A DNA stretch of 64,000 bases from Candidatus Spongiisociaceae bacterium. Its GTDB lineage: Bacteria; Actinomycetota; Acidimicrobiia; Spongiisociales; Spongiisociaceae. The stretch is taken from the NCBI GenBank assembly GCA_965202675.1, contig OZ241842.1, positions 2,001,962 through 2,065,961 of the forward strand, in the 5' to 3' direction. Below are positions 5,371 to 46,259 of this stretch, piece after piece. Numbering within the stretch: position 1 is the stretch's first letter; the number at the start of each line of letters is the position of its first letter. Position numbers and translations under genes: made by a program. The notes below the pieces were generated by a model. The model worked only from the letters and a program-made list of their open reading frames with translations. It had not been told where the DNA came from and ran no database searches.

Positions 5371-5407
5371 AGGCCGGCAGCGCAGCAAAAAACGGAGGAC
5401 GCCCGGA

Positions 5408-6276: not shown

Positions 6277-6280
6277 CGCC

Positions 6281-17399: not shown

Positions 17400-17471
17400 G
17401 GGCGCTTAGCTCAGCGGGAGAGCGCTGCCTTCACACGGCAGAGGTCACTGGTTCGATCCCAGTAGCGCCCA
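17400..17471 (+). tRNA. tRNA-Val (anticodon CAC)
   Basis: GGGCGCU-UA-GCUC-AGCGGGA-GAGC-G-CUGCC-UUCACAC-GGCAG-AGGUC-ACUGG-UUCGAUC-CCAGU-AGCGCCC-A folds as a 72-nt cloverleaf with a GTTCGATCC T-loop. CCA is not encoded. Confidence 0.85.
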
Positions 17472-17533
17472 CCGCCGCCGCTGTTGGCAAGCGGTGCAGG
17501 TCAGGGGGAGTTCTTTGATCCCCTGCGGCAGAT

Positions 17534-18687: not shown

Positions 18688-19425
18688 ATGAGGAAGATCG
18701 TCATCTTTTTGGCGGCGGTGCTGGCGCTGTCGGCGTCTGCGTGCAGCAGAGGAGAACCGACCGATACGGCCTCCACCAACTCCGTTTTCGATGACATCCT
18801 GTCGACCTCCGAGCGCTCCCAGCCGGTTACCACCCCCCCCGCCGACACGATTCCTCCTACTGTCCCCACCACGGAACCCGAAAGCCCTACCACCACCCCT
18901 CCCACCCTGCCCGCCGTAGAAACAGAGGTCGAAGACGCAGAAACAGTCTCGCAGCCGGCGGCGCTGACCTCCGCTTCCATAGTCACGCTGCGCGCCCTGG
19001 GGCCGGTGCGGATCGGCATGTCGGTGGCGGAGGCGTCCGAGGCGGCGGGGCTGGAACTCCGCCGGGACCTGGGCAGGTCCTCGACCGACAGCTGCTACCA
19101 CGTGAACGCCGGCCCCACCATGCGGGGGGTGTCCTTCATGGTGGTCAACGACCTGATCAGGCGCATCAACATCGATCCGCCCAGCCCGGTCGCCACCAGG
19201 TCGGGGGTGGGGATAGGCACCACGGCGAGCAACCTGCGGGAGGTCTACTCCGACAACATCCAGCGGGCCGACAGCGCGGCGGCGGGCGGCCAGGGCTGGG
19301 CGTTCGTGCCCAACGACGAATTCGACGACGACTTCCGCATCTACTTCGAGATCGAGGCCGGGTCCGTGGCCCGTTACCGCCTGGGGTCCAGACCGTCGGT
19401 GGACTCCCCCGGCGGCTGCCAATAA
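18688..19425 (+). CDS. Secreted/lipoprotein of unknown function with Pro/Thr-rich linker
   Basis: The signal peptide ends in a lipobox-like LSASAC. A PTT-rich low-complexity linker is followed by a globular C-terminal domain. An RBS is present. Confidence 0.6.
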   Translation: MRKIVIFLAAVLALSASACSRGEPTDTASTNSVFDDILSTSERSQPVTTPPADTIPPTVPTTEPESPTTTPPTLPAVETEVEDAETVSQPAALTSASIVTLRALGPVRIGMSVAEASEAAGLELRRDLGRSSTDSCYHVNAGPTMRGVSFMVVNDLIRRINIDPPSPVATRSGVGIGTTASNLREVYSDNIQRADSAAAGGQGWAFVPNDEFDDDFRIYFEIEAGSVARYRLGSRPSVDSPGGCQ

Positions 19426-20125: not shown

Positions 20126-21475
20126 TCACAGGCGGGAGGGGGGATCGGGCTCGTGTTCCTTGCGGGGCGCCCGCTGCATCGGGTGGCGCATCCGCCTGGC
20201 CATGTGGAGGACGAGGCCGCCCGCCCGGGCCGGCGCCACGACAAAGGCCTGCCGTTCCTCCTCGGGGACGCCCTCATTGGCGACGATCCGCAGGCCGGTG
20301 TAGAGGGTGATGCAGCCGTACACGCCGCCGACGAACCAGAACAGACCCTCGTGGCCGATGACCTCCATGGCCAGGGCCCCGCCGAGCGGACCGAGGATGG
20401 CCCCCACCCCGGTGATGAAGGACATCAGGCTGCTCACGCCCGCCGCCGAACCGGGGGGCAGCCGGTCGTTGATGTGGGTGAGGGCCAGCGGATACAGGGA
20501 GAGGGCGAGGCCCCCGGTTACGAACGAGAGCGCCACCGCCCACCAGCTCAGATGGTCGGTGTACACCATGATCAGGCACGCCCCGACGGCCAGCAGGCCC
20601 ACGCCCAGGATCACCTTGCGCCTTCCCAACCGGTCCGACAGCATCCCCACCGGCGCCTGCAGGGCGATGCTCCCGAAGATCGCCATGCTGGTGAACAGGG
20701 CGATGCGGTTGGTGCTCATCCCCACCCTGGCCCCGAACACCGCCCCCAGGCTCAGCAGGGCGGCCACGCCGACGCCCTGGCACAGCGCCGCCGCCGCCCC
20801 CAGCGGAGCTTCTTCCCAAACCTGCCGGACGGGCAGCTTGCCGGCGGAGACGGCCAGGCGGGGGGCGGTGGAGGCGGACAGCGTGATCGGGATCACCGCG
20901 ACCGACACGAGGATCGAACCGACGATGAACAGGACGATCCCGGCCGGGTCGGCCAGGATCAGGAGCAGCTGGCCGAGGCCCATGCCGCCCATCAGCACCA
21001 CCATGTAGGCGGCCAGTATCCGCCCCCGATTCTGGTTGGTGCTGGCGTCGCCCAGCCAGCTCTCGGCGATGATGAACAGGCCGGACATGGCGAAGCCGGT
21101 CAGCAGCCGGGCCCCGCTCCAGACGATCGGGGCGGCGGCGACGATGTATACAAGGGTGGCGGTCGAGGCCAGCGAGGCCAGCGCCGCGTACACCCGGATG
21201 TGGCCCACATGGAACACCATCCGGCGGGTCAGCATCGCCCCCGCCAGGAAACCGGTGTAGTAGGAGCCCATCATGATCCCGGTGGCGGCGGTCGAGAACC
21301 CTTCGAGTTCGGCCCTGATGCCGAGCAGCGGCAGCATCATCCCGTTGCCCAGCATGACCAGGAGGACGGCGGCGAACAGGGCCCATGATCCCAGCACGGC
21401 TTCCCGCGCGGTTCCGGGCAGGGCCGTGTCTGCTGATACAGCAGCGCCGTCAGAGGATTCGAAGGAATCAATCAT
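20126..21475 (-). CDS. MFS transporter
   Basis: The 12-TM MFS pattern includes the conserved GxLaDRxGrR loop (MLSDRLGRRK). The start is taken at the internal ATG (MIDSFESS); the upstream in-frame start at 21535 is an alternative. Confidence 0.75.
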   Translation of the reverse strand: MIDSFESSDGAAVSADTALPGTAREAVLGSWALFAAVLLVMLGNGMMLPLLGIRAELEGFSTAATGIMMGSYYTGFLAGAMLTRRMVFHVGHIRVYAALASLASTATLVYIVAAAPIVWSGARLLTGFAMSGLFIIAESWLGDASTNQNRGRILAAYMVVLMGGMGLGQLLLILADPAGIVLFIVGSILVSVAVIPITLSASTAPRLAVSAGKLPVRQVWEEAPLGAAAALCQGVGVAALLSLGAVFGARVGMSTNRIALFTSMAIFGSIALQAPVGMLSDRLGRRKVILGVGLLAVGACLIMVYTDHLSWWAVALSFVTGGLALSLYPLALTHINDRLPPGSAAGVSSLMSFITGVGAILGPLGGALAMEVIGHEGLFWFVGGVYGCITLYTGLRIVANEGVPEEERQAFVVAPARAGGLVLHMARRMRHPMQRAPRKEHEPDPPSRL

Positions 21476-21683
21476 GGTTGACCGCTTCGGGAAGAGGGCC
21501 GCCCGAAGGTTTCGGACGGCGGGCCGATGGAACACCGCGGGATGTACCCGACCCTCGGCATGGTAGCAAGGCCCCGTTATTACTTGCGCGGACCCGGGGT
21601 TGCTTGCGGACCCGGCCGGGGCTCCCGGCGGCGGCGGTGCGGCCCCGGGGCCCGCAGTGCGGACGCCCGGATCGGAGCGCCCT

Positions 21684-22466
21684 TCAGCGGCCCTTCCATA
21701 CGGGCGGCCGCTTTTCGGCGAAGGCGCGGGGGCCCTCGACGGCGTCCTCGGAGGACAGCATGCGCCGGTAGGACTCGATGCCGCCCGACCGCATCAGCGC
21801 CAGCGCCTCTGCGGCGGCCATTCCCTCGGTGCGGCGGCGTATGTCGAGGATGGCCGCCACCGCCAGCGGCGCCATCGCGCACACCCGGTCTGCCAGACGC
21901 CGGGCGGCGTCCAGGAGCTCATCGGCCGGCGTCACCCGGTTGACGAGCCCGAACCGGAGCGCCTCTGCCGCGGAGAGGCGGCGGCCGGCGATCAGCACCT
22001 CTGCGGCTACGGGGGCGGGCAGCAGTCTGGGAAGGCGGACCGTTCCCGCGTCGGGGATCACCCCCGCCGCCGCCTCCGGCAGCCAGAACTCCGCATGGTC
22101 CGCCGCCGCCGCCAGGTCGGCCGCCATGGCCAGCTCGAAGCCGCCGCCCACCGCCATTCCGTTGACGGCGGCGATCACCGGCTTGTTCAGCCCCGGAAGC
22201 TCGGGGAAGCCGCCGAACCCGCCCGGCCCGTAGTCGCTCTCGTAGGCCTCTCCGGCGGCGGCCGCCTTGAGGTCCCATCCCGCCGAGAAGAACCGCCCGC
22301 CCGCCCCGGTGAAAACGGCGACCCGCAGCCGGGGGTCGTCCCGGAAGTCGGCGAACACTGCGCCCAGCTCTCGGCTGGCGGCGGCGTCGACGGCGTTGGC
22401 CTTGGGGCGGTCGAGGGTTACCTCGATCGTCTCCCCGCGGCGCACCACCCTGACGGCTTCGGTCAT
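21684..22466 (-). CDS. Enoyl-CoA hydratase/isomerase family, CaiD-like (carnitinyl-CoA dehydratase-like)
   Basis: FSAGWDLKAAAAGE...KPVIAAVNGMAVGGGFELAMAADLAAAAD...SEDAVEGPRAFAEKRPPVWKGR is closely collinear with CaiD. Confidence 0.8.
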   Translation of the reverse strand: MTEAVRVVRRGETIEVTLDRPKANAVDAAASRELGAVFADFRDDPRLRVAVFTGAGGRFFSAGWDLKAAAAGEAYESDYGPGGFGGFPELPGLNKPVIAAVNGMAVGGGFELAMAADLAAAADHAEFWLPEAAAGVIPDAGTVRLPRLLPAPVAAEVLIAGRRLSAAEALRFGLVNRVTPADELLDAARRLADRVCAMAPLAVAAILDIRRRTEGMAAAEALALMRSGGIESYRRMLSSEDAVEGPRAFAEKRPPVWKGR

Positions 22467-24553
22467 CGCCCCGGAATCCTATAGACGGACACGAGGGCGT
22501 CCACCGCCCAGGCCGCGTCCGGAGTGACGATCAGGGGGTTGATCTCCGCCTCGGCCAGATCGGGGCGGTCCGCCGGCAGGGCGGCGAGACGGTCGACCGC
22601 CTCGGCCGCCGCCTCCAGGTCGGCGGGCGGGCGGCCGCGGAAACCGCGGAGCGCCCGCCCGATCCGCAGGCGGTCGAACGCCCGGTCGAGATCGGCGCGG
22701 GAGGCCGGGAGCAGCAGGACGGCTGCGTCTTGGAGCAGCTCGACCAGCTCCCCGCCCGCGCCCAGCGTCAGCACCAACCCGACGGGCGGCGCCCGGCGCA
22801 CCGAGACCAGCAGCTCGGCCACGCCTCCGGTGACCTGTTCTTCCACCAGCACCGGCGCGGCGGGGCCGCCCAGCCGCCGGACTGCTTCTTCCAGCTCGTC
22901 CTCCGTCTCGATTCCGGTGATCACCCCGCCGAGCTCGGTCTTGTGGCCGGGACCCACCATCTTGGCCGCCAGCGGGAAGCGGAGGCCGGCCGCCGCTTCG
23001 GTTCCGACGCCCGCCCCGGACCCGGTTCCTCCCAGCACCGCCCCGGCGGGGACGGCGATCCCGGCCTCGCGGAGCAGCGCCTTGGAAGCCGGTTCGTCGA
23101 GGGTGCGGACAGATTCGGGCGCGCCCCGGCCGGCTGCCGGCGGCGCCGAGGGGGGCAGGTGGAGGGGCGGGGGCGCCCCGGCGAACCACCGTCCGACCGC
23201 GGCGGCCGCCGCCAGCCCGCCCAGGGCCTCGTCGATGGAGCCGGCCGCCGCCAGGCCCCGCCCGGCCAGGTGCTCCCGGATCCGGGGGGGCATGTTCTCC
23301 GCCAGCCCGGCCGCCGCCAGGCCCGGTTTTCCCGCGGCGGCGCAGGCGTCCTCGAAGGCCAGGAGGGTGGGCTGCCAGTCGGAGTCGTCGCAGCCGTCGG
23401 GAGGCCAGTCGAGCACCAGCAGGGCGGCGTCGAACGGTCCGGACAGCGCCTCCGTGAAGCACCGCTCGAGCGCGGGGCGGTCGCCCCAGATGTAGGTGTG
23501 GTAGTCGAGGGGGTTGTTCACCGTTGCCCGCCCGGACAGGGCGGCCGACACCCGGGCGGCGTGGTCGGGGGCGAACGGCTCGAAGCGCACCCGGTAATGG
23601 ACGGCCCGGTCCGCCGCCAGGGCCGCCTCGCCGCCCGAACACGACAGCGACACCAGGCGGTTGCCGGGGAGGGGTCCGATCGTTCCCAGCACGCCGAGGA
23701 CGTTGATCAGCTCCGCCGGGGTGTCCACCGCGATCACCCCGTACCGCTCGAACAGAGCGTCGTAGGCGGCGGCGCCCCCGGCCAGGGCGGCTGTGTGGGA
23801 GGAGGTGATCGCTCCGGCCTTCGCGGTGCGGCCCGACTTGAGCACCGCCACCGGCTTGCGGGCCTCGCGGCAGGCCAGGGCCGCCCGCCCGAAGGCAAGG
23901 GGGTCGGATATCGACTCCAGGTAGAGGCCGGCGGCGGTTACCTCGGGCCGTCCGGCCAGGTAGGCGAGGCATTCCTCGGCGGTGACCGAAGCCTGGTTGC
24001 CGAGGGAGACCACGCAGCTGAAATCCACCCCCCGGCGGTTGAAGGTGAGGTTGAGGGTCAGGTTCCCGGACTGGCTGATCAGCGCCGGGCCGGTTTCCAC
24101 CCGGCGGCAGCCGTGGATGTCCGGCCACAGCACCGCGCCGGTAACCGGGTTGATGACCCCGTAGCAGTTGGGGCCTACGATCGGCATGCGGTGCCCGGCC
24201 ACCAGCCGTTCCTGCAGGGCGGCGCCCTCCGGTCCGGCCTCGGCGAACCCGGAGGCGTGGAGCACCGCCCCCCCGCAGCCGAGGGCGGCCAGCTCGTGCA
24301 CCATCTCCACCGTAAGACGGCGGTTGACCGCCACGAAGGCGGCGTCGGGCGCTCCGGGCAGCTCGTCCAGCGACCGGTACACCCGCCGCCCCGCCATGGT
24401 CCGCCGGGAGGGGTGGACCGGCCAGATCTCGCCTGTGAACCCGAGGAGGTCGGACTGGCGGACGGCCCGCTCGGCGGCGCGGCCCCCGATCACCGCCGCG
24501 GTGCGGGGGTCGAGCAGGCGGCCCAGATCACGGCCGGTCCGGTCCGTTTTCAT
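22463..24553 (-). CDS. Acyl-CoA synthetase (NDP-forming), CoA-binding + ATP-grasp fusion
   Basis: The start is taken at MKTDRT (residue 64 of ORF 22463-24742), which has a GAGAAG RBS. The N-terminal part is a succinyl-CoA-synthetase-alpha-like CoA-binding domain and the C-terminal part an ATP-grasp domain. It overlaps the caiD-like start by 4 nt. Confidence 0.8.
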   Translation of the reverse strand: MKTDRTGRDLGRLLDPRTAAVIGGRAAERAVRQSDLLGFTGEIWPVHPSRRTMAGRRVYRSLDELPGAPDAAFVAVNRRLTVEMVHELAALGCGGAVLHASGFAEAGPEGAALQERLVAGHRMPIVGPNCYGVINPVTGAVLWPDIHGCRRVETGPALISQSGNLTLNLTFNRRGVDFSCVVSLGNQASVTAEECLAYLAGRPEVTAAGLYLESISDPLAFGRAALACREARKPVAVLKSGRTAKAGAITSSHTAALAGGAAAYDALFERYGVIAVDTPAELINVLGVLGTIGPLPGNRLVSLSCSGGEAALAADRAVHYRVRFEPFAPDHAARVSAALSGRATVNNPLDYHTYIWGDRPALERCFTEALSGPFDAALLVLDWPPDGCDDSDWQPTLLAFEDACAAAGKPGLAAAGLAENMPPRIREHLAGRGLAAAGSIDEALGGLAAAAAVGRWFAGAPPPLHLPPSAPPAAGRGAPESVRTLDEPASKALLREAGIAVPAGAVLGGTGSGAGVGTEAAAGLRFPLAAKMVGPGHKTELGGVITGIETEDELEEAVRRLGGPAAPVLVEEQVTGGVAELLVSVRRAPPVGLVLTLGAGGELVELLQDAAVLLLPASRADLDRAFDRLRIGRALRGFRGRPPADLEAAAEAVDRLAALPADRPDLAEAEINPLIVTPDAAWAVDALVSVYRIPGR

Positions 24554-24567
24554 CTTCTCTGGGTTGG

Positions 24568-25728
24568 TCAGCCGCCCAGGGGGCGGAGCATCGACCGGGA
24601 GATGATGTGGCGCTGGATCTCGGAGGTGCCGTCCCATATGCGGTCCACCCTGGTGTCCCGCCACAGCCGTTCCAGGGGCAGCTCGTCCATCAGGCCCATG
24701 CCGCCGAAGATCTGGACGGCCTCGTCGGTAACGAACTGGCACATCTCGCTGGCGTACAGCTTGGCCATGGCCGCATCGGCGTCGGTCATGACGCCCCGCC
24801 CGTCCTTCCAGGCCGCCCGGAGGGTGAGCAGCTCGGCGGCTTCATAGCGGGTCTGCATGTCCGCCAGCTTGAAGGACACCCCCTGGAAGCGCCCGATCTG
24901 CTGTCCGAACTGGCGGCGCTCCACCGCCCATTCGGTTGCCAGGTCGATCGCGCGCCGCGCCCGGCCCAGGCAGACGGCCGCTACCTGGAGCCGGGTCGAC
25001 CCCAGCCATTCGTTGGCGACCTCGAAGCCCCGGTGCTCCTCTCCGAGGACCGCCGATTCGGGCGCCCGGCAGCCGTCGAAGGCCAGGACGAAGTTGTGGT
25101 AGCCCCGGTTGGACACCGCCCGGTAGCCGGGGAGCACCTCGAAACCGGGGGTGTCCATATCCACCAGGAAGGCGGTGATCTTCTTGCGGGGCCCTCTGGG
25201 GCCGGCTTCTTCGCCGGTGGCGGCGAACAGGATCACGTAGTCGGCCAGGTCGGCGTGGCTGATGAAATGCTTCGTCCCGTCGATGACGTAGCCGTTTCCG
25301 TCTCGGACAGCCGCGCATTTCATGCCCCGCAGGTCGGAGCCTGCGTCCGGTTCGCTCATCGCCAGGCATTCCACCCGCTCACCCCGGACGGTGGGCAGCA
25401 GGTAGCGCTCGATCTGCCCCCCCCGGCAGGCCCGCAGGATGTTGGAAGGCCGGGCGACGATGTACTGCAGGGCGTAGGAGGCGGCGCCCAGTTCCCGCTC
25501 CACCAGCGCCAGGGTCAGGGGGTCGAGGCCCGCCCCTCCGTATTCCTCCGGCATGTTGGCGGCGTAGATGCCCGCCTCGATCGACCGGGATTTGATCCGG
25601 TCGACCATCTCCGGCGAGACCCGCCCGGTGCGTTCCACCTCTTCTTCCAGGGGGAACAGCTCCTGTTCGGTGAACCGCCGGGCGGTCTCGACGATCAGCT
25701 CCTGTTCGCCGCTCAGCTCGAAGTCCAT
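24568..25728 (-). CDS. Acyl-CoA dehydrogenase (CaiA-like candidate)
   Basis: ACAD fold motifs are present: MSEPDAGSDL, GTKHFISHA and QIFGGMG..ELPLERLWRD.R..RIWDGTSEIQ. Confidence 0.85.
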   Translation of the reverse strand: MDFELSGEQELIVETARRFTEQELFPLEEEVERTGRVSPEMVDRIKSRSIEAGIYAANMPEEYGGAGLDPLTLALVERELGAASYALQYIVARPSNILRACRGGQIERYLLPTVRGERVECLAMSEPDAGSDLRGMKCAAVRDGNGYVIDGTKHFISHADLADYVILFAATGEEAGPRGPRKKITAFLVDMDTPGFEVLPGYRAVSNRGYHNFVLAFDGCRAPESAVLGEEHRGFEVANEWLGSTRLQVAAVCLGRARRAIDLATEWAVERRQFGQQIGRFQGVSFKLADMQTRYEAAELLTLRAAWKDGRGVMTDADAAMAKLYASEMCQFVTDEAVQIFGGMGLMDELPLERLWRDTRVDRIWDGTSEIQRHIISRSMLRPLGG

Positions 25729-27272
25729 GATTCCGCCCTCTCCTGCGCTCCGGTTTCCGGTACAACCCGGGGTTCTGCTTCGGGTCCGGGGTGCTCCCTG
25801 GTTGCCATCACCCGCCCCAGGTATTCGGGCCGGGGCGCCTCCTTGTGCACCCGCCGGACGGCCGCCAGGGCCAGGGCGGGGGCGTCCTCGATGGGGGCCG
25901 GGCGTCCGGCGTCCGTGTCCATGTGCAGCAGCATCTGCTCGGCGGCGGCCGCCCGCTCACCCGTGCGGCGGTCGAACATCTCGTGGTAGAGGTGGAGCCG
26001 TTTCCGGTCGAGGCCCGCCACCAGGGTGGTAAAGCGCAGCGAGTCGCCGCCCGACACCTCCCGCAGATAGTTGATATGCGTTTCCACCGTGTAGAAGGAA
26101 TGCCCCGCCGCCCGGTACTCCTCGTCGTCGCCGATGTAACGGAACAAGGCGTCGGAGGCCCACCCGAAGGCGGTCAGGTAGGCGGCCTCGGTCATGTGGC
26201 CGTTGTAATCGACCCAGTCGGGTTCCACATCACAGCCGAACAGCTCCAGGGGCGCGGCGATCCGGTCTCCCTCGGACCAGGGCCGGGCGCCCTGCCCGTA
26301 GCGGCGGGCTTCGCGGCGGGCCAGGATGTTCCCGGCGCCCACCCCCGCCGAGCGCAGCGCCCTCATCACGGCCAGCAGGTAGTCGTCCCGCAGCCGTTCC
26401 AGATCCTCGACGCTCCGCCCGGCGGCCTGGGCGGCGGTTCCTTCCACCATGGCGTCGATCAGGCCGTCGGTCAGCTCCGGCGCCTCCAGCCGGGTCCAGG
26501 GGAGCTTCAGGGCGGGGCCGAACTGTTCCAGCATCCGCCGCATTCCCGAGCGCCCCCCCGCCAGATGGAAGGTGAGGTTGACGCCCATGCCCGCCCAGCG
26601 CAGCCCCGGTCCGTAGACGATGGCGTCGTCCAGTTCCCCGGTGGTGGCCAGGCCGTCGTTCACGATGTGGAGGATCTCCCGCCACACCGCCTCCTGGAGC
26701 CGGTCGGACAGGTAGCCGGGAAGCTCGTTGCGCACCACCAGCGGATACATGTCCAGCCAGTCGTACACCTCGGCGGCCTGTTCGACGGTCTCGGGGGAGG
26801 TGCGCCCGCCGGGCACCACCTCGCAGAGGGGCAGCAGGTAGACCGGATTGAAGGGATGGCCGATCACCACCCGTTCGGGATGGGCGCAGCCGGATGCGAT
26901 CCGGGTGGGCAGCAGACCGGAGGAGCTGGAGGCGATGATCACCCCGGGCGGGGCGGCCGCATCCAGGCGGGCGAGCAGGCCGGTTTTCAGAGCCTCGTCC
27001 TCGGGGGCCGACTCCTGGATGAAATCGGCGGCGCCGGCAACCTCCTCGGGTGTGTCCATGAAAGCGATCCGGTCGGGCCGGGCGCCCGGGTAGAGGCCCA
27101 GCCGCTGGACGGACAGCCAGGACCGGTCGACAGCTTCGCGGAGGCGCTGCTCGGCGTTCGGGGCCGGATCCCAGGCCGACACGTCGAGGCCGCGGCTCAG
27201 CGCCCTGACCGCCCATCCGGCGCCGATGACGCCGGTTCCGATCACGCCGAACACCCGGGGAGGCGGGTTCAC
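25713..27272 (-). CDS. lcdH: L-carnitine dehydrogenase fused to C-terminal thioesterase (betainyl-CoA thioesterase-like) domain
   Basis: The N-terminus (VFGVIGTGVIGAGWAVRALSRGLDV) is a 3-hydroxyacyl-CoA-dehydrogenase NAD fold resembling LcdH. The C-terminal roughly 150 aa form a hotdog/4HBT-like domain, as seen in fused carnitine dehydrogenases. Confidence 0.8.
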   Translation of the reverse strand: MNPPPRVFGVIGTGVIGAGWAVRALSRGLDVSAWDPAPNAEQRLREAVDRSWLSVQRLGLYPGARPDRIAFMDTPEEVAGAADFIQESAPEDEALKTGLLARLDAAAPPGVIIASSSSGLLPTRIASGCAHPERVVIGHPFNPVYLLPLCEVVPGGRTSPETVEQAAEVYDWLDMYPLVVRNELPGYLSDRLQEAVWREILHIVNDGLATTGELDDAIVYGPGLRWAGMGVNLTFHLAGGRSGMRRMLEQFGPALKLPWTRLEAPELTDGLIDAMVEGTAAQAAGRSVEDLERLRDDYLLAVMRALRSAGVGAGNILARREARRYGQGARPWSEGDRIAAPLELFGCDVEPDWVDYNGHMTEAAYLTAFGWASDALFRYIGDDEEYRAAGHSFYTVETHINYLREVSGGDSLRFTTLVAGLDRKRLHLYHEMFDRRTGERAAAAEQMLLHMDTDAGRPAPIEDAPALALAAVRRVHKEAPRPEYLGRVMATREHPGPEAEPRVVPETGAQERAESWTSS

Positions 27273-27361
27273 CGCCGGCGGTCCTTCCGGCCCCGGCCGT
27301 CCGGCCGGGGTTGTCCGGTCACACGCGCTCGGCCGTTTGCTCCGGTCATCCGGTCAGCCGG

Positions 27362-28291
27362 TCAGAAGGCGACCGCGCCCAGGCCCTTGAGAGCCAGGCG
27401 TTCCCTGGTCTCGGCCGGGTCGGCCGGCTCGCGGGACAGCTCCCGCAGGATGCGCACGATCTTGGCCACCTGCTCGGCGTTGGACTCGGCCAGCTTGCCC
27501 TTCCGCAGGTAGATGCCGTCCTCCAAGCCGACCCGCACGTTGCCGCCCATGACGGCCCCGGCGGTGACGATGTCGAACTGATGGCGGCCCCCGCCCAGGA
27601 TCGACCACTCCAGGTCATGGCCGAACAGGCGGTTGGCGGCCGTCTTCATCGCCGCTACGTTCTCGATGTCCGGCCCGATGCCGCCGAAGGTGCCCATCAC
27701 GAACTGCATGAAGATCGGGGGCTTGACCAGGCCCCGGTCGGCGAAGTAAGCCAGGGTGTAGAGGTGGCCGACGTCGTAGGCCTCGAACTCGAAGCGGCAG
27801 CCGGTCTTGTCGGCCAGCACGGTGAGCATGTATTCGATGTCGCCGAAGGTGTTGACGAACGGCTCCCACTTGGTGCTCTCCAGGAAGGGCTCCTCCCAGT
27901 CGTACTTCCAGCGGCCCTCGTAGCGGGGGATCATCTGGAAAAGGCCGTAGTTCATGGTGCCCAGGTTGCAGGTGGCCAGCTCGGGTTTCAGTATCTCGAT
28001 GACCCGCAGGCGCTCTTCGATGGTCTGGCCGGTGGCCCCTCCGGTGGTGATCGAGATGACCGCGTCGCACCCTTCCTTGATCCCGGCGCAGTACTCCCGG
28101 AAAATACCGGGGTCCGACACCGGGCGCCCGTCCACGGGGTCCCGGGCGTGGATGTGGATGACGCTGGCCCCCTCGCGGGCGGCGTCGACCGACTGGGTTA
28201 CATGCTCATCGACGGTGACCGGGATGTCGCTGTTCATGGTGGGGGTGTGCGAAGCCCCCGTTACCGCACACGTAACGATCACACCGCTCAT
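27362..28291 (-). CDS. Beta-keto acid cleavage enzyme (BKACE/DUF849; 3-dehydrocarnitine cleavage enzyme-like)
   Basis: Kce/BKACE family signatures are present (VIVTCAVTGA...IHIHARDP...GCRFEFEAYDVGHLY...GGNVRVGLED). It lies immediately upstream of lcdH on the same strand. Confidence 0.85.
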   Translation of the reverse strand: MSGVIVTCAVTGASHTPTMNSDIPVTVDEHVTQSVDAAREGASVIHIHARDPVDGRPVSDPGIFREYCAGIKEGCDAVISITTGGATGQTIEERLRVIEILKPELATCNLGTMNYGLFQMIPRYEGRWKYDWEEPFLESTKWEPFVNTFGDIEYMLTVLADKTGCRFEFEAYDVGHLYTLAYFADRGLVKPPIFMQFVMGTFGGIGPDIENVAAMKTAANRLFGHDLEWSILGGGRHQFDIVTAGAVMGGNVRVGLEDGIYLRKGKLAESNAEQVAKIVRILRELSREPADPAETRERLALKGLGAVAF

Positions 28292-28378
28292 CTGCCCCTC
28301 CTTGTCGAGACCGGCTGCCAGGATAATCGTACTGCCGTTCCGCCCGCCGCGCCGCCGTACCCCTGTCGGCCCCGGAGG

Positions 28379-28945
28379 TCAGAGGTCCAGGCTCTCGAAC
28401 TTGCTGCGGTGCCTGTTCGGCAAGCCGTCGACCACGGCTTTGGCCGCGGCTATGAGCTCCTGAGCGGCTTCCAACTCGGAACGCGTGCTGTCCAACGCCT
28501 GACGCGACTCGGACAGTTCACCGTCGATCCGGGTCTGGATGCCGTTCACCTGCTCGCGGATGGTTTCCTGCCCGCTCGCCAGCTCGCCCAGCTTGTTGTC
28601 CTGCGTCTCCGATTGTTCGGCCAGCCTGCCGATTTTGTCCTTGGCGGTGTCCACCCCGGTGCGGATAGCAGTCAACTCGGCTCCGGTCACCAGATCCTCT
28701 GCACGCTGCAACGATTCCATGGTCTTTCCTATCGCCGACCGCAACAGGTCGCAGAGCTCCGCCATCTTGGTCGAGGTTTCCCGCAGGCTGCTGGATGCAT
28801 CGGATACAGCCGTCGAAGCCTGCTCCTGTCTGCTTGCGGCACCGGCCATCCCTTTGAGCCGCTCCTGCAACTCCTTCAGGGCATCGGTAGCCTCTTCGAA
28901 GCGGCGCTTGACCGCCTCGAACTCAACTGTATTATCTGATGCCAT
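28379..28945 (-). CDS. 188-aa coiled-coil protein of unknown function (low-GC island, translationally coupled to the helicase gene)
   Basis: Heptad-rich, Q/E/A-rich sequence with no TM segments. It starts 2 nt after the helicase stop. GC is about 52%. Confidence 0.5.
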   Translation of the reverse strand: MASDNTVEFEAVKRRFEEATDALKELQERLKGMAGAASRQEQASTAVSDASSSLRETSTKMAELCDLLRSAIGKTMESLQRAEDLVTGAELTAIRTGVDTAKDKIGRLAEQSETQDNKLGELASGQETIREQVNGIQTRIDGELSESRQALDSTRSELEAAQELIAAAKAVVDGLPNRHRSKFESLDL

Positions 28946-30395
28946 GCTTACTCACCTCCGTAGGTTTCCAGTATAGTGATGGCGAAGTCTCGGGCAAATT
29001 CAACACCTTCCGCTAGGGAGAACACAGTGAGTGGCCAGTTATGCTCACTGTATGTCCACATTTCCTCATCGGTCACAGCAGGAGGCGCTTCCGAATAGTG
29101 AGCTACTCCGAATAAACCGGCCGCCCATTTGGTTTCCCATCCTAAGAAATCAATCATCAAAGAGACCGCTTCGCTGATGACATCCTGAGGAACTTGATAC
29201 AAGACTCGCGCCGACTGCAGGGACTCCTTTAGCCCGTTTTCGAACTCACGAGAGTTGCCGTCTGGAATCATGGCCTCGGTTATTGCTCGGGTAGCTAGTA
29301 ACCATGGATAATCGGGGTAAGAACCAAGCAATCGGCCAGCCGCGCCTCGCCACTCGCGTGCGGTGGTCTCGGTTTCTATTATGTTCCATTCTATTATCCA
29401 TTCAAGGAAACGAAGATACGATTCCTGCACTAATCGCAATAATACTTGGGTTGCGAATCCCTCCTGTAGATAATCCAATATTTGTCGCCGCATTTCCATG
29501 TTAGGATCGCTATTTTCGGCGGCGGAGTGTGTAGCCAACCACATTTCTCTCATCGACCGGCGGCGCGCTGTCTCGATTGTACGATATACAAACCTTATCA
29601 ATTCCTGTCCACATCTTTTGATAGATGACATCAGGTCACCCGGATGCCCTATTCTGTTCCTTATCGCTGTTATTTGTCCAGGTTGACTTCGTTCAATAAA
29701 GGCTTCCAAACTCTTAGTAACTGTTTCCATGCTTACACTGCGAACTGTGACTTCGAAGGTTTGTGATCCGCGCTCCTTTAGATAATCTTCTACTACTCCT
29801 AGAACGGCCAGTCTGTGAAGGGCCCGTTCACGAGCATCCTCGCCAGCTCTCGTTTGTCTATCTCTAAAAGGCAGGCTGATCTCTTGTCGTTCTGTCCTCG
29901 GGTTCAATTCGTATGCAACTCTCATGAGGACAGATATCTCATCTTCCATACCAGCGAAGGTATTAAGGTGAAACCATAGGGCAGTAGTAACATCATCTTT
30001 GGCTCTATTACTAATCTCTTCAATCCGTTGTCGTATGTCCTCCAGAGGAGTATCTTCCGACAAAAGATTCTGATTCCGATCCTTGTCGAATTCGCTAAGG
30101 ATCAGCATGCATTCTGCTCGATCTCCGTCGCGTCCTGCTCTGCCTACTTCCTGATAGTAAGCCTCTATGGATCTTGGAAACAGGTAGTGAATACTCCACC
30201 TAATGTTAGGTTTATCTATCCCCATGCCAAAAGCACTGGTGCACACTAGGGCTAATATTTCATTGTTCATGAAGCGATTAACACTATCGTCCTTTATTAT
30301 CTCGAATTCATGGTGGGAGATGGTTCTTGGATTGCTACCCGCGTACACACCTACGCTAGGACAGATTATCGCAACGGCATCTTTAGCATTAATTA

Positions 30396-31209
30396 GGGCG
30401 TGTTAACACTATTTCGTTTTGATATGGTATCATGCGGGGATGGAGATTACAGAAGCTCAGTACGAGCGTATCAAGTCGTATTTACCGACGCAGCGCGGTA
30501 ATGTCCGCGTGTCGAATCTGGATGTGCTCAACGCTTTTTTGTATGTGTTGGAGCACGGATGTAAGTGGCGGGGGTTGCCTGACCGGTTTGGTAATTGGCA
30601 TACCATCTACACGCGGATGAACCGCTGGTCGAAGAATGGCGTGCTGGACAGGGTGTTTAGGGGTTTGCAGGATGAGGGGATCATCCGGATGAATCTGGAG
30701 GTTGTTTCTTTGGACAGCACGATCGTCAGGGTTCATCCCGATGGGATGGGCGCTCTGAAAAAAAGGGGCCCCAGGCGGTCGGCCGGTCCCGGGGGGGTTG
30801 GACGACCAAGATTCATATGGTTGCCGCGGATGCTCGAACGGCGGTGATGTTTTCTCTTTCTGCGGGTCAGGATCATGACGCTGCGCATGGGCGGAGGCTG
30901 TTGGAGCGGATCGGCGTGCAACAGGATCCGTTGTTCCTGGTGATGGACCGGGCGTATGAGGGGGACGAGACGCGGCAGTTGGCTTTGGATCTGGGGTATA
31001 CGCCGGTGGTTCCTCCTACAGTCCGGCGGCGGAACCCTTGGGTCTATGACCAGGAGGTTTACAAGCGGCGCAACGAGGTCGAGCGGTTGTTCCGACGGCT
31101 GAAGGAGTATCGTCGTGTCTTCTCCCGTTACGATAAACTCGACGTGGTTTACCTGGGGTTCATCACCTTTGCGCTGATAACAGAAACCCTACGTAGTGTT
31201 AACAGGCCC
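30396..31209 (+). mobile_element. IS5-family (IS427/IS1031-group) insertion sequence, 814 bp, with imperfect terminal inverted repeats and a TA target duplication
   Basis: IRL is GGGCGTGTTAACACTAT and IRR is ...TAGTGTTAACAGGCCC. TA flanks both ends. GC is about 50%. It encodes an orfA-orfB transposase. Confidence 0.8.
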
Positions 31210-31212
31210 TAG
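30440..31212 (+). CDS. IS5-family transposase (orfA-orfB, programmed -1 frameshift at A7 run ~30758-30764)
   Basis: OrfA reads MEITEAQYERIKSYLP...VSNLDVLNAFLYVLEHGCKWRGLP...WHTIYTRMNRWSKNGVLD. OrfB (30817-31212) reads ...DHDAAHGRRLLE...LVMDRAYEGDETRQLALDLGYTPVVPP...NEVERLFRRLKEYRRV, the DDE_Tnp_1 C-terminus. The two ORFs overlap around the GAAAAAAAG slippery site. Confidence 0.75.
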
Positions 31213-33715
31213 TCCTGGTAATCCTCCAGGGCGTTGATTAACAGTAGGAACGAATACCAAGCCGGAGAAGGTCTGCTCTCCTCTATTAGGCATAAAATAC
31301 CTTGCTTGATTGACATCAAACAGGGCGGGCAAGCGCCTCAAGCAACCTTGGAGAGTAACTGGGTGATCAGGGGAAGTACATCTTACATGATAGTTGAGTT
31401 CTGGTCGATCAAAGGATTCTGGTTGTACGATAGAATTATCATTGTGTTCCATAATACCCAACTGAAATAGTACATCGCTTAGTACTGCTCGAGATGCTGT
31501 TCCAGTTAAGGCAAGCAGTGGGGGAGGTTGTCCGCTTTGATCTTTAGATAATTTACGAATAATGTTGCCCAAATTGAGGTATGCATATCTGAAGTCATGC
31601 CCCCATTCAGAAACGCAATGTGCCTCGTCTACTACGACTAGGTTGACAAGAGTAGCGTTTGCCAACCTAGCTAAAGCCTTTCTAAATTTCTTTGTCTGAA
31701 TACGCTCGGGAGCGACAAACACATAGTAAGGCTCGGCATTTGCTATATGTTCCAAAACTACATCTTGTTCTCTAGTACGACTTGTGATTTCTTGTACACG
31801 GTCGATGCCGTGGCTTCGTAGGCCTTTAACTTGATCATTAATCAAGGCTACCAACGGGTCGATCACTAAGGTTCGTCCGGGCAGGCATAACCCGGCTAGC
31901 TGATAGATCAAGCTCTTGCCCGCCCCCGTCGGGAGAAGCACGGCACAATCCCTCATGGACATGACCTCGACTATGGCTTCATACTGACCATCACGAAAAC
32001 CCTCTTTGGCAAACACAGCGCGGAGTAATACCCTCAGAGGGTCCCTGCCCTCGTCTCCTTCGATATGAACGGTTGCTCGATTGTTGTCGCCTTCTAGGCG
32101 ATCGGACATCAGAACGGGAACACCTGTGGATCGGATAACCACTGTTGGTGTGCCATCGCGATCAGGGAGTGGCTGGCACGAAGTACGATCACACTGCAAC
32201 AGGATACGGGCGCGAGGGTTAGACACCGATTCTTCGGAGGCATCTTGGCGCTCGTATCGGCCTTCCGGGGTGCGGTGGAAGAGTACTCTATCTTCACTGT
32301 CCTCGAATAACACTCGTCCTGGCACAACGGAGCGGGCATCCCACAGGCAACAGAGGGCGTAAAGAACTTCCAGATATGGTACTATCAGTTCGATGGCCAT
32401 ATGCGTAGGATCTTCGACTTCTACTATCCAGGAATCCCCGCTTAGGAATCCGCGGCGGATGGCTTCGCATAGTCCCAAAACCAAGCGATGAACCTGGATA
32501 GAACCCCAGACCAATAATTTATCTTCATCCGAGGGATTTGTGGCTTGACTGACTGTCGCCTCTATAGCGTTGGTAACGGCTTCAAGTTGAGAGCCGTGTC
32601 CCATTCTGATTTCACTTGTAGACACGCGGATAGTTTCTATGCCGATATTTCTAAGCAATTGGTCCCGCTCTTGGTCAGTTAGTTGTTGAGTTTCGTGTTG
32701 CGTACCGTCTATTTCAATTACAAATGGACAGCTACCCGGTGGTGCCCAGAGAAAATCGCAACGGCGGTTCCCGCCTGCTCCATGGCCTGCTGCCTGCAGG
32801 AGGCCGTCTAATGAAGCTTGAGGTATCAGCCAACGAGCAACTCGTGGATGGTGCTCTGCCATCCATTCCATCAGTAGCCGTTCCTCGTCCGATTCAGCCA
32901 GAGATGGTTCGATTTCAACGTGGTAGCCACCGGGTATCACGGTGAGGTCGCGTAAGCTCACTGAATAAGAATCGTGCAGATTGAATGACACATCTCCCGG
33001 TTGCGAGCTAGGTCGGATACGGTCACCTAGACCGACAGACTCAATCAGTATCCGCTCAGAGTCGGGGTGTAGGGGCGGTGTCAATCCTCGGCGGAGAAGT
33101 TTGCCCATTACGTCCAGCACTCTTTGAGTGTTTCTATCAGACTCAAGTTCGTGGAGAGGGGATGTGCTTGCTATCCAGCAGTTGGAGAGAGAGTCCATGT
33201 CCTCAACCTTGACAGACCTAAGAGATGCTCCTACAGTGGCATATTCGACCTGCCAGCCAGCATTTTCGAAGCCAAAGGTACCATCAGACCAGTGAACACG
33301 TTGTTTTCTGAGAACATCCTGCCCGAATACCTTTGCTGGGTTCGGATGATTGGTGATCATCGTGTCGGGCTGAGGTGTATCCGGAGGGTTTATTATTGGC
33401 GGGTTAGCCCTTTTTTCCTCGTTGCTATTGAAAGTTGTGGTTCCTCGGCAACTGGGGAATTGCAGGCATCCCCAGAAACGGTTTCCGGACCTTGCCCCCT
33501 GCTTCGCGGTGCGAAGGGTCATATCACTCCCACATCTTGGGCATCTGGGGCGGTTTCCACTCGTGCTGTTCCTTCGCCACGTTGACCCCCCGCGCTTGCG
33601 GTGGTCTGTCTCGGAGTCTAACCCCGACGAGGGGTCGCGGTTTCTGGACACACAGGCGTTTGGTGATCGACAAAACTGTCAGGCGGCGATCCCGATGAAG
33701 GGTTATGCACCTCGC

Positions 33716-42797: not shown

Positions 42798-42821
42798 GGG
42801 GTTACCCCGGAGCCCCGTTGT

Positions 42822-46258: not shown

Positions 46259-46259
46259 T

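Follow-up and report, generated by a model that had tools for sequence, protein, structure and literature searches.

A six-gene Acidimicrobiia operon with a probable role in the conversion of gamma-butyrobetaine and L-carnitine to glycine betaine

Layout of the operon and its surroundings

The window, i.e., the whole 64,000-nucleotide stretch of DNA that was analysed, contains at 20126-28291 an intact six-gene operon on the minus strand, which is probably an actinobacterial version of a known pathway. Its minus-strand order is BKACE, a carnitine dehydrogenase-thioesterase fusion, an acyl-CoA dehydrogenase (ACAD), a fused NDP-forming synthetase, a CaiD-like hydratase and an MFS transporter. The six-gene content that an earlier note had claimed for this region was confirmed, all open reading frames being found in their places and each with the domains ascribed to it.

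20126..21475, minus strand: MFS transporter, 449 aa (MFS_1, 94 bits)
21684..22466, minus strand: CaiD-like enoyl-CoA hydratase, BcoD-like, 260 aa (ECH_1, 200 bits)
22463..24553 (corrected start), minus strand: fused alpha/beta NDP-forming acyl-CoA synthetase, BcoA/B-like, 696 aa (CoA_binding_2, Succ_CoA_lig and ATP-grasp_5)
24568..25728, minus strand: acyl-CoA dehydrogenase, BcoC-like, 386 aa (all four ACAD Pfam domains)
25713..27272, minus strand: L-carnitine dehydrogenase-hotdog thioesterase fusion, BcoE-like, 519 aa (3HCDH_N, 3HCDH and 4HBT_2)
27362..28291, minus strand: BKACE (PF05853, 326 bits)
28315..28345, minus strand: candidate promoter/operator, motif GGCGGAACGGC(A)GTACGAT, kept in the window and in the related loci L002 and L001
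41038..42797, minus strand: ETF beta and alpha subunits (ETF and ETF_alpha domains)

Two start codons differ from those of the mechanical open reading frames. The mechanical frame of the synthetase (759 aa, 22463-24742) overlaps the ACAD gene by 175 nt, and since its homologues are 696-700 aa long and its Pfam domains start at about residue 74, the true start is assigned to the ATG at 24553, 14 nt past the ACAD stop. Likewise, the ATG at 21475 is the probable start of the MFS gene, whose mechanical frame starts at 21535, because the L001 and L002 homologues measure 436-450 aa. Besides the 14-nt gap between ACAD and synthetase, there are overlaps of 16 nt between the dehydrogenase fusion and ACAD and of 4 nt between synthetase and hydratase, and a gap of 89 nt between BKACE and the fusion. 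These junctions are compatible with the five enzyme genes being transcribed as one unit, and no terminator-like sites were found on the minus strand inside the unit. The MFS gene may lie outside the transcript, given the gap of 148-208 nt that separates it from the hydratase.

The BKACE ATG has a strong Shine-Dalgarno sequence (AAGGAGG) in front of it, and about 25 nt 5' of that sequence the upstream motif holds a TANNNT-type -10-like hexamer. The DNA beyond this motif differs in the window, L002 and L001, all of which have the motif itself, and its 16-mer is found as a single exact copy within the window; it may be the operon's promoter or operator. No pathway regulator of the GlxA or IclR type adjoins the window operon, these being the cluster regulators in rhizobia and roseobacters and in other Actinomycetota, respectively. 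Further upstream, the GC content is 45-58% at 29.0-33.5 kb, compared to 67-79% across the operon. This low-GC island is real and does lie between the operon and the GcvT-like and MFS genes, as had been noted earlier, but the word downstream in that note does not hold, the island being 5' of the operon. It is a separate insertion upstream of the operon's promoter region and bears a RecQ/DpdF-like helicase gene, interrupted by an IS5-family element. The host is an uncultured, marine-type, high-GC Acidimicrobiia bacterium.

The window also encodes a corrinoid protein resembling the glycine-betaine-specific MtgC, a non-pyrrolysine MttB, RACo, a methyl-THF methyltransferase, and a dimethylglycine-dehydrogenase-like protein together with ETF, while a DmdA-like aminomethyltransferase gene adjoins the operon (NF009133, 362 bits, the cut-off of 410 not being reached). 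The ETF pair is a possible electron acceptor for the ACAD and, equally perhaps, for the adjacent dimethylglycine-dehydrogenase-like gene product.

The operon proteins and their relatives

The fusion protein scored 425 bits against the NCBIfam L-carnitine dehydrogenase model (NF005471), above the cut-off of 414, and 506 bits against NF005716, under the cut-off of 592; its residues 10-492 are 42% identical to the carnitine 3-dehydrogenase of Sinorhizobium meliloti, and its thioesterase domain matches PDB 2HLJ. It would thus be predicted to turn carnitine into 3-dehydrocarnitine and to hydrolyse both L-carnitinyl-CoA and betainyl-CoA. The ACAD shares 61.6% identity with its S. meliloti counterpart and 65% with the cluster ACAD of Rhizobium johnstonii, and has the family motif IW[D/E]GTSEI, the canonical form of which is IYEGT. 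Its leading NCBIfam matches are generic, such as acryloyl-CoA reductase (288 bits, cut-off 640). In the synthetase, the phosphohistidine motif is SHTA (H253), without variation across the family; the protein is 41-44% identical to the R. johnstonii and S. meliloti cluster synthetases over 98% of its length. In the comparison with the S. meliloti cluster, the alignment fell into two pieces of 44% and 39% identity. The hydratase is 49.6% identical to the caiD gene product of the S. meliloti cluster, and its top NCBIfam match is crotonobetainyl-CoA hydratase (NF002936, 350 bits, under the cut-off of 500); the PDB entries nearest to it carry the annotation of carnitinyl-CoA dehydratase. The MFS protein has a generic YcaD-like model as its best NCBIfam match and is without a characterised relative. 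Only the closest relatives have its gene conserved 3' of the hydratase gene (L001, 82%; L002, 71%; L007, 52%), and its product may serve in the uptake of gamma-butyrobetaine and/or carnitine.

The BKACE requires separate consideration. Its top NCBIfam match is the 3,5-dioxohexanoate enzyme (NF053538, 424.7 bits, cut-off 430), and its nearest PDB entries are 3E49, 3E02, 3LOT and 8RIO. The closest characterised or solved relatives, at 50-53% identity, are 3E49/3E02 and BKACE15 of Paracoccus denitrificans (PDB 8RIO/8RIP/9HNF; 51% identity), with which it has the Zn ligands and the catalytic Glu and Arg in common; the Zn His-x-His motif and equivalents of BKACE15 E171, R254 and E258 are all kept. 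With the BKACE of S. meliloti and that of R. johnstonii it shares 30-35% identity. By these comparisons, it belongs to the 3E49/3E02/BKACE15-like subgroup and not to the rhizobial BcoF type, and it is evidently not orthologous to the BKACE that has been characterised as dehydrocarnitine-cleaving. The reported substrates of BKACE15 are uncharged beta-keto acids, and its gene context suggests aromatic degradation. The BKACE family has been described as promiscuous. The clade of the window BKACE has 27 clade-specific substitutions, two of which change Arg/Lys positions to Val (146 and 279) and another of which brings Asp at position 240. Clade members at 70-95% identity are the first gene of the same operon every time, and this is the best-conserved operon protein among the relatives (93-94% identity). 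In the locus L090, the clade BKACE adjoins a gamma-butyrobetaine-hydroxylase-like gene (GBBH_N and TauD). The BKACE step of this lineage is probably performed by a recruited paralogue, whose subgroup otherwise acts on beta-keto acids without charge.

Comparison with known systems and distribution

The S. meliloti bco cluster has the identical order of the five enzyme genes. Four of the five proteins are 42-62% identical to those of the window, the ACAD motif is common to both, and the inferred chemistry would be equal. The two differ in the BKACE, which is a paralogue of about 30% identity (3C6C is the nearest PDB entry for the rhizobial type, 3E49/8RIO for the window type), and in that the alphaproteobacterium has an ABC importer and a divergent GlxA gene, whereas the high-GC Acidimicrobiia operon has the MFS gene and is without GlxA. 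The S. meliloti BcoA/B, BcoC, BcoD, BcoE and BcoF reportedly convert gamma-butyrobetaine via L-carnitine to glycine betaine in vitro, the route being said to pass through gamma-butyrobetainyl-CoA, crotonobetainyl-CoA, L-carnitinyl-CoA, L-carnitine, 3-dehydrocarnitine and betainyl-CoA. S. meliloti BcoAB with ATP, CoA and gamma-butyrobetaine has been described as a preparative route to gamma-butyrobetainyl-CoA, and the dehydrogenase SM2011_c01638 of this organism has been cited as bifunctional, i.e., a dehydrogenase and a betainyl-CoA hydrolase.

With Escherichia coli CaiTABCDE, the window operon has gamma-butyrobetainyl-, crotonobetainyl- and carnitinyl-CoA in common, as well as a CaiD-type hydratase, CaiD being the top NCBIfam model of the window protein, and an ACAD, which in E. 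coli is of the CaiA type. The E. coli operon runs in the reductive direction, for anaerobic carnitine respiration, and the window ACAD scored only 191 bits against the CaiA model (cut-off 540). By Pfam and NCBIfam domain matches, none of the six window genes has homology to the CaiB CoA-transferase, the AMP-forming CaiC ligase or the CaiT antiporter. [quoted passage not shown] We take the Pseudomonas genes to be caiX-cdhCAB/cdhR, with CdhB as the thioesterase-like protein; presumably, the dehydrogenase and thioesterase genes are separate there, and the ACAD/synthetase/hydratase module for gamma-butyrobetaine is missing.

Synteny was counted over 63 evaluable genome loci, which belong to several phyla. 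In 55 of these the ACAD gene was adjacent, and in 57 the hydratase gene; carnitine dehydrogenase was present in 51 and BKACE in 44, and all five enzyme genes in 36. The gene arrangement is far above chance; the identical five-gene order repeats across phyla. It is found on R. johnstonii pRL10, where the PGAP labels include carnitine 3-dehydrogenase and carnitinyl-CoA dehydratase, and on a Sulfitobacter plasmid. A megaplasmid of R. pomeroyi has only the ACAD, synthetase and hydratase genes, behind a GlxA regulator and without BKACE or carnitine dehydrogenase. Rhizobia have an ABC importer where the window has its MFS gene, and the nearest relatives are marine and sponge-associated MAGs.

Proposed pathway and alternative readings

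Overall, it is quite likely that the region is the Acidimicrobiia version of the bco pathway, leading from gamma-butyrobetaine and L-carnitine to glycine betaine. All enzyme activities of the operon are assigned by homology and synteny, and the allocation of genes to steps partly follows the S. meliloti chemistry reportedly established in vitro by Bazire et al. 2019. In this scheme, gamma-butyrobetaine and/or carnitine would be brought in by the MFS protein, and the synthetase would form gamma-butyrobetainyl-CoA via the phosphohistidine H253. The ACAD would then produce crotonobetainyl-CoA, passing electrons to ETF, and the hydratase would convert this to L-carnitinyl-CoA, from which the thioesterase domain of the fusion would free L-carnitine. 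The dehydrogenase domain would next form 3-dehydrocarnitine, BKACE would convert this and acetyl-CoA to acetoacetate and betainyl-CoA, and the fusion's thioesterase would release glycine betaine from the latter. Further use of glycine betaine could involve the MttB/corrinoid/RACo methyltransferase system and the dimethylglycine-dehydrogenase-like and ETF genes elsewhere in the window.

The two routes read into this operon by the earlier note are supported by the S. meliloti synteny (proteins 30-62% identical) and by the literature on BcoAB and the bifunctional dehydrogenase. The NDP-forming synthetase had been considered unusual, but an enzyme of this kind is what has been described for the aerobic route, and its use there is widespread. 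The two-route chemistry is thus not new, and the finding is correct and largely ordinary; the recognised differences from the rhizobial system are the BKACE type, the MFS gene in place of the ABC importer and the absence of an adjacent GlxA or IclR gene. What speaks against the bco assignment is the distance of the BKACE from the rhizobial type, along with its 3,5-dioxohexanoate top curated model and the uncharged substrates of BKACE15, and the scores of the hydratase and the fusion under the NF002936 and NF005716 cut-offs. The lack of a characterised relative for the MFS protein, the gap before its gene and the missing regulator next to the operon also count against it.

An unlikely alternative is that the synthetase is a DddX-like ATP-dependent DMSP lyase (DMSP, ATP and CoA giving DMSP-CoA, and then DMS and acryloyl-CoA), so that the operon, or at a minimum its synthetase, hydratase and ACAD genes, would act in sulfonium catabolism, as the main role or as a second one of physiological relevance. 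The nearest solved structure to the synthetase is indeed DddX of Psychrobacter (PDB 7CM9), which has the same fused ACD-superfamily architecture with a phosphohistidine and, like the DddX-like enzymes, also has an onium carboxylate as substrate. Moreover, a 2026 paper reported that roseobacter 'DddX-like' enzymes yield DMS and acryloyl-CoA, with H251, T351, W354 and W392 as key residues; these correspond to H253, T353, W356 and W393/394 of the window protein, at a constant +2 offset and in columns that are invariant or nearly so in its family. The Sulfitobacter cluster enzyme has equal spacing, while a roseobacter paralogue is without the T-x-x-W motif. As compared by these reported key residues alone, the roseobacter enzyme appears to be in the family of the window synthetase, and roseobacter family members do lie within bco-type clusters. 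The DmdA-like neighbour and the marine and sponge-associated relatives also agree with a DMSP role. However, DddX is distant (214 bits), its catalytic base Glu432 is not kept (the aligned column varies, with D392 in the window protein), and its gene context of a BCCT transporter (dddT), dddB and dddC is missing here. Furthermore, the carnitine dehydrogenase, thioesterase and BKACE, which have no DMSP role, remain co-linear with the synthetase from one phylum to another, and the S. meliloti family member works as a gamma-butyrobetaine ligase. The kinetics of the DddX-like enzyme are modest (Km 1.43 mM, kcat 0.42 s-1) and compatible with a side activity, which could be explained chemically, since DMSP-CoA may readily eliminate DMS.

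It is decidedly improbable that the CoA-dependent half holds while the BKACE does not cleave dehydrocarnitine, in which case the pathway would stop at L-carnitine (e.g., as an osmolyte), or the dehydrogenase and BKACE would act on an uncharged beta-hydroxy acid. The subgroup of the window BKACE, its top NCBIfam model and the uncharged substrates confirmed for BKACE15 are in favour of this, as are the Azospirillum and Cereibacter BKACEs of 51-56% identity, whose partners, in contexts unrelated to this one, are generic 3-hydroxyacyl-CoA-dehydrogenase-like genes. Nonetheless, the clade of at least 70% identity is strictly linked to the carnitine dehydrogenase-thioesterase fusion, and the window BKACE occupies the exact position of the rhizobial one. 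Other Acidimicrobiia, with equally related dehydrogenases (62-65% identical), have a rhizobial-type BKACE there, which suggests paralogue displacement inside a single pathway. The promiscuity described for the family also speaks against this reading, and the fused thioesterase would be needed for betainyl-CoA only where BKACE makes it.

Lastly, it is highly improbable, and disfavoured, that these genes form a generic operon for short-chain fatty-acid beta-oxidation that has nothing to do with betaines: although the ACAD (with its generic top NCBIfam matches), crotonase, 3-hydroxyacyl-CoA-dehydrogenase fold and acyl-CoA synthetase are all generic parts, the operon lacks a thiolase and contains a BKACE, its dehydrogenase is above the L-carnitine dehydrogenase equivalog cut-off and fused to a thioesterase, it shows synteny to the cluster characterised in S. 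meliloti, and it has the gamma-butyrobetaine-hydroxylase-like neighbour in L090 and betaine-demethylation genes nearby.

The operon and its correspondence to the bco cluster

The window has a GC content of 67%, and real genes can be recognised in it by a GC3 above 0.85. Six such high-GC3 ORFs span 20126-28291 of the minus strand.

Genes of the operon
27362-28291, minus: BKACE (Pfam PF05853, 326 bits)
25713-27272, minus: 3-hydroxyacyl-CoA-dehydrogenase fold fused to a hotdog thioesterase (3HCDH_N/3HCDH and 4HBT_2 in one ORF)
24568-25728, minus: acyl-CoA dehydrogenase, ACAD (Pfam/NCBIfam)
22463-24742, minus: ORF of the NDP-forming acyl-CoA synthetase (CoA_binding_2, Succ_CoA_lig and ATP-grasp_5, fused)
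21684-22466, minus: crotonase; top model NF002936, crotonobetainyl-CoA hydratase (350 bits, cut-off 500)
20126-21535, minus: ORF of the MFS transporter (Pfam/NCBIfam)

In NCBIfam, the fusion dehydrogenase scored above the cut-off of NF005471, the equivalog of L-carnitine dehydrogenase (425 bits against 414), and reached 506 bits on NF005716, the model of the fused form, which is under the cut-off of 592. The start of the synthetase was corrected to ATG 24553, giving a protein of 696 aa (696-700 aa in homologues), and that of the MFS gene is probably at 21475, judging from homologues of 436-450 aa in L001 and L002. The junctions leading from the dehydrogenase through the ACAD and the synthetase to the hydratase measure -16, +14 and -4 nt, respectively, and 89 nt follow BKACE; together with the strong Shine-Dalgarno sequence ahead of BKACE, this spacing argues for one transcription unit of the five enzyme genes. 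The gap between the hydratase and the MFS gene is 148-208 nt, and the latter may or may not be co-transcribed with the others. Overall, the six ORFs, their Pfam and NCBIfam domain assignments and the junctions confirm the operon that the earlier note had described as a minus-strand set of six genes.

Just upstream of BKACE, a short motif that includes a -10 element of the TANNNT type is kept in the window and in two related loci, L001 and L002, whatever lies beyond it. It is a short conserved direct motif, and no inverted repeat that could be an operator was found upstream of BKACE; likewise, Rfam revealed no riboswitch near the operon. Promoter and terminator scans of the minus strand returned nothing useful, the sigma-70 consensus being of little value at ~70% GC. 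Beside the MFS gene lies a 245-aa ORF without family match (18688-19425, plus), which is kept in L001, L002 and a further related locus, L007 (58-82% identity), and a tRNA-Val (CAC) gene is located at 17400-17473 (plus).

For the bco genes of S. meliloti, Bazire et al. (2019) reportedly carried out an in vitro characterisation, with five enzymes accounting for seven steps. BcoA/B is reportedly the gamma-butyrobetainyl-CoA synthetase, BcoC the dehydrogenase, BcoD the crotonobetainyl-CoA hydratase, BcoE a thioesterase/L-carnitine dehydrogenase, and BcoF the BKACE responsible for the cleavage of dehydrocarnitine.

Window proteins compared with the S. meliloti cluster (identity)
ACAD: 61.6%
Hydratase, against the caiD gene: 49.6%
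Synthetase: 44% and 39%, in two pieces (frameshift in that assembly)
Dehydrogenase-thioesterase: 42.2% over 491 aligned residues (S. meliloti enzyme, 496 aa)
BKACE: 29.9%

The S. meliloti locus compared (CP090106.1, 2520415-2540441) carries the PLSDB label 'S. meliloti Ak57 plasmid pSymB' on a record of chromosomal size (3.72 Mb); its bco synthetase gene is without annotation and aligns in two frames, which points to a frameshift or an assembly error.

As in the bco cluster, a fused NDP-forming synthetase, of a family in which the phosphohistidine motif is invariant, is situated between the ACAD and the crotonase in the window, and the BcoC-type ACAD (65% identical to that of R. johnstonii), the CaiD-like hydratase (BcoD) and the fusion of L-carnitine dehydrogenase with a hotdog thioesterase (BcoE) are also shared. 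The R. johnstonii hydratase likewise scored below the cut-off of 500 on NF002936 (314 bits). However, the BKACE at the same position of the operon is not orthologous to BcoF. Accessory genes differ as well: in R. johnstonii and S. meliloti, a divergent GlxA-family regulator precedes the cluster and an ABC importer follows it, neither of which adjoins the window operon, whereas in the Sulfitobacter plasmid cluster the regulator is again divergent, but the ABC transporter genes lie upstream of it, not downstream. A tblastn search found neither the regulator nor the importer in the Acidimicrobiia loci, and both are typical accessories of bco clusters, though probably not defining ones. The regulator is GlxA in the Proteobacteria clusters and IclR in other Actinomycetota, whereas none adjoins the window operon, in which an MFS transporter, found only in the closest relatives among the matches listed, takes the place of the ABC importer. 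The E. coli cai operon is different again, as it employs the CoA-transferase CaiB, the AMP-forming ligase CaiC and the BCCT antiporter CaiT, and such domains are absent from the six window proteins.

The ACAD deserves a separate comment. All 74 cluster ACADs examined have the motif IW[D/E]GTSEI (D in 45, E in 29) as against the canonical IYEGT, and both the window and the R. johnstonii enzymes have Asp at the position of the catalytic base. The possibility that Asp in place of the canonical catalytic Glu renders the ACAD inactive was rejected, since Trp followed by Asp or Glu is family-wide and includes the rhizobial cluster ACADs; the Asp is thus a family trait and not a defect.

In published work, purified S. 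meliloti BcoAB forms the CoA ester of gamma-butyrobetaine when supplied with ATP, MgCl2 and CoA, and SM2011_c01638 catalyses carnitine oxidation as well as the conversion of betainyl-CoA to glycine betaine. The known cluster of the same gene order and these activities support the two routes that the earlier note assigned to the operon, namely cleavage of 3-dehydrocarnitine to glycine betaine, and an aerobic, CoA-dependent route from gamma-butyrobetaine through crotonobetainyl-CoA to carnitinyl-CoA. Its view that an NDP-forming synthetase replacing CaiB or CaiC is unusual did not hold, since published descriptions of the aerobic route have such a synthetase as the rule. From sequence comparison, the window operon probably has a bco-type function. 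The pathway itself is already known; what differs here is the paralogous BKACE, the different transporter and the missing adjacent regulator. The result, while not surprising, helps the annotation of MAGs and adds uncultured Acidimicrobiia, marine and sponge-associated, to the range of a pathway whose biochemistry has been characterised.

Among the matches listed, the nearest relative is the metagenome contig L001, whose six proteins share 82-94% identity with the window proteins; for the complete MAG OY282370.1 ('uncultured Acidimicrobiia bacterium'), the range is 71-93%. Further relatives are other MAGs of Acidimicrobiia, among them several sponge-associated ones (Candidatus Spongiisociaceae, Poriferisodalis). 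On plasmid pRL10 of R. johnstonii 3841, the order is that of the window: BKACE, 'carnitine 3-dehydrogenase' (944 bits on NF005716), ACAD, 'acetate--CoA ligase family protein' and 'carnitinyl-CoA dehydratase'. A matching cluster is present in S. meliloti and on a Sulfitobacter plasmid, and the Ruegeria pomeroyi megaplasmid has a short version (ACAD-synthetase-hydratase). With the R. johnstonii synthetase as query, only Rhizobium was matched, and S. meliloti was not reached. A pattern scan with one genome per species was performed, in which the best 80 of at least 600 loci were looked at, 63 of the 80 being evaluable, i.e., having enough flanking DNA.

Gene context of the synthetase at evaluable loci (from the best 80 of at least 600)
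ACAD adjacent: 55 of 63
Hydratase adjacent: 57 of 63
Carnitine dehydrogenase nearby: 51 of 63
Dehydrogenase fused to thioesterase: 31 of the 51 dehydrogenase loci
BKACE nearby: 44 of 63
All five genes: 36 of 63

The BKACE paralogue

The PDB entries closest to the window BKACE are 3E49, 3E02, 3LOT and 8RIO (313-333 bits), the last being BKACE15 of Paracoccus denitrificans, which is reported to be active on uncharged beta-keto acids; the rhizobial enzyme has 3C6C as its nearest entry. The window BKACE is 50-56% identical to 8RIO, 3E49, 3E02 and an Azospirillum homologue, and 30-35% identical to the BKACEs of S. meliloti and R. johnstonii. Its closest sequence relationship is to the BKACE15/3E49-like subgroup, with which it also shares the conserved catalytic residues, as it keeps the Zn ligands and has counterparts of E171, R254 and E258. 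Its top curated model is that of a 3,5-dioxohexanoate enzyme (NF053538; 424.7 bits, cut-off 430). An exact look-up of the protein in public assemblies gave no match.

An enzyme of such affinities might act on another substrate, which is the alternative to be weighed against the genomic setting. Members of the subgroup at 51-56% identity occur in unrelated gene contexts. More than 120 protein clusters are at least 70% identical to the window BKACE, labelled, where a label is given, as Acidimicrobiia, Euzebyales or Actinomycetota, and all members of this clade with examined context (four at 71-78% identity, plus closer relatives) head an operon of BKACE, dehydrogenase-thioesterase, ACAD, synthetase and hydratase. 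Other Acidimicrobiia, with equally related dehydrogenases (62-65% identical to that of the window), have a BKACE of the rhizobial type at the same position. Judged by gene context only, the window BKACE would be functionally equivalent to BcoF, and the simplest reading is that one paralogue may have displaced another within an unchanged pathway. The clade-specific loss of two basic residues together with the gain of an Asp are candidate determinants of specificity. The swap would be a natural experiment on the evolution of substrate specificity in a famously promiscuous family. Convergence on the rhizobial type was also considered; only 4 of the 27 clade-specific substitutions coincide with the rhizobial-type residue, which is about the chance level, and these were thus not counted as evidence for it.

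Seven loci of sponge-associated Acidimicrobiia (L011, L013, L018, L024, L028, L031 and L038) have the dehydrogenase-thioesterase, the ACAD and the synthetase, with the hydratase adjoining the synthetase in all except L024; their fetched flanks showed neither type of BKACE. In an actinobacterial relative (L090), a TauD-family dioxygenase resembling gamma-butyrobetaine hydroxylase lies directly upstream of the BKACE operon (6857-7984), and the Sulfitobacter cluster has a TauD/TfdA dioxygenase and a class II aldolase as neighbours (L092, 11888-13743). Some genomes may thus have both an oxygenase route and a CoA route from gamma-butyrobetaine to carnitine.

The synthetase and the DddX-like DMSP lyases

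The solved structure closest to the window synthetase is DddX, an ATP-dependent DMSP lyase (PDB 7CM9). Both are fused enzymes of the ACD superfamily with a phosphohistidine; the alignment to 7CM9 spans residues 17-691, and H292 of DddX is aligned with H253 of the window. However, the catalytic base of DddX, Glu432, is absent, being aligned to D392 in a variable column of the family alignment, and so is the cation-pi residue Trp391, which is aligned to H352/T353.

A second group of enzymes, the roseobacter 'DddX-like' lyases, converts DMSP, ATP and CoA to DMS and acryloyl-CoA, and mutagenesis found H251, T351, W354 and W392 to be important (July 2026, Eng Microbiol, PMC13543886); the article makes no mention of carnitine, betaine or gene context. 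Shifted by +2, these residues correspond to H253, T353, W356 and W393/394 of the window, a match of numbering and motif rather than an alignment, and all four are invariant or nearly so in the family of the window synthetase. The synthetase of the Sulfitobacter cluster has the same residue spacing, and a roseobacter paralogue of the superfamily is without the T-x-x-W motif. Roseobacter members of the BcoA/B-type family (L091, 7989-10001; L092, 8001-10019) are located in carnitine (bco) clusters. On these sequence features, a possible identity of the DddX-like family with BcoA/B is a strong lead.

If this link holds, gamma-butyrobetaine ligases probably act on DMSP in a side reaction; on chemical grounds, DMS should be readily lost from a beta-sulfonium thioester. 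Alternatively, the operons of these ligases may have a genuine second role. That DMSP should be the main function of the window operon is improbable.

In Actinomycetota, a BKACE of the subgroup for uncharged beta-keto acids may have been recruited to the dehydrocarnitine step, and the operon synthetase may belong to the roseobacter 'DddX-like DMSP lyase' family; that both are true is a tentative proposal, which we hold at somewhat under even chance. The former would mean an independent origin of specificity for trimethylammonium substrates in the BKACE family. If the latter is true, DMS release from DMSP may be a side or second activity of bco-type synthetases, that of the window included, and ocean-wide counts of 'dddX-like' genes would largely represent carnitine/gamma-butyrobetaine operons. 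The apparent identity of the two families would then alter the reading of marine sulfur-cycle surveys.

Surroundings of the operon

Upstream of BKACE, the window has an island of low GC content.

Features of the island
28379-33651 (28.4-33.7 kb): low-GC island, GC 45-58%
Within the island: coiled-coil ORF of 188 aa
Within 28948-33651: RecQ-like helicase with zinc ribbon and DUF559 domain; top PADLOC matches DpdF and PsyrT
30394-31211, ORFs on plus: IS5-family element of 818 bp with 18-nt terminal inverted repeats, DUF4096 and DDE transposase, splitting the helicase

The helicase, split in the window, has an intact orthologue of 1236 aa in L002, of which residues 1-753 and 756-1236 align to window positions 33522-31237 and 30402-28954 with the frame unchanged. 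The island is present in L002, a 72%-identical relative (66-5708), and absent in L001, an 85%-identical one (3662-6302), which indicates that it is a separate insertion and not a part of the operon; it is probably defence-related. In L001, the second MFS gene and the GcvT-like (DmdA-like) gene directly adjoin BKACE and are divergent from it, and this unit has opposite orientations in the window and L001. This site, upstream of the operon, is rearrangement-prone.

Neighbouring genes with a possible betaine theme
33716-34915, minus: DmdA-like aminomethyltransferase; top model DMSP demethylase (362 bits, cut-off 410)
33716-36134, minus: the DmdA-like gene and the second MFS gene as a pair adjoining the carnitine operon; pairing kept in L001
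42822-45338, minus: dimethylglycine/sarcosine-dehydrogenase-like protein with DAO, FAO_M and GCV_T domains
41038-45338, minus: the same gene with ETF beta and alpha after it; divergent from the corrinoid genes
45518-52884, plus: corrinoid protein, DUF1638, methyl-THF:corrinoid methyltransferase, RACo, non-pyrrolysine MttB and MTHFR-like protein, in this order

The corrinoid protein is most similar to the glycine-betaine-specific MtgC, and the complete corrinoid methyltransferase set is probably a demethylation system for a quaternary amine (perhaps glycine betaine) in an Acidimicrobiia genome. The DmdA-like, dimethylglycine-dehydrogenase-like/ETF and corrinoid/MttB genes thus offer plausible onward routes, within the same 64 kb, for the glycine betaine from the operon. 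The operon, the MttB/corrinoid genes and the dimethylglycine-dehydrogenase genes together predict the use of gamma-butyrobetaine and carnitine as sources of carbon, nitrogen and methyl groups.

Rfam PYLIS_3, the mttB pyrrolysine insertion sequence, was matched at 51414-51513 (plus; 51.5 bits, gathering score 38), inside the MttB-family ORF; there is no in-frame stop at this location, and the match is probably conserved coding sequence, not a functional PYLIS element. Interspersed with the metabolic genes are two AAA_14/DUF4143 ATPase genes (37498-39546 and 55964-57274), the first of which, the one scanned, matched the PADLOC candidate system PDC-S01 at 423 bits, and a SoFic-like Fic-domain gene (39938-40966).
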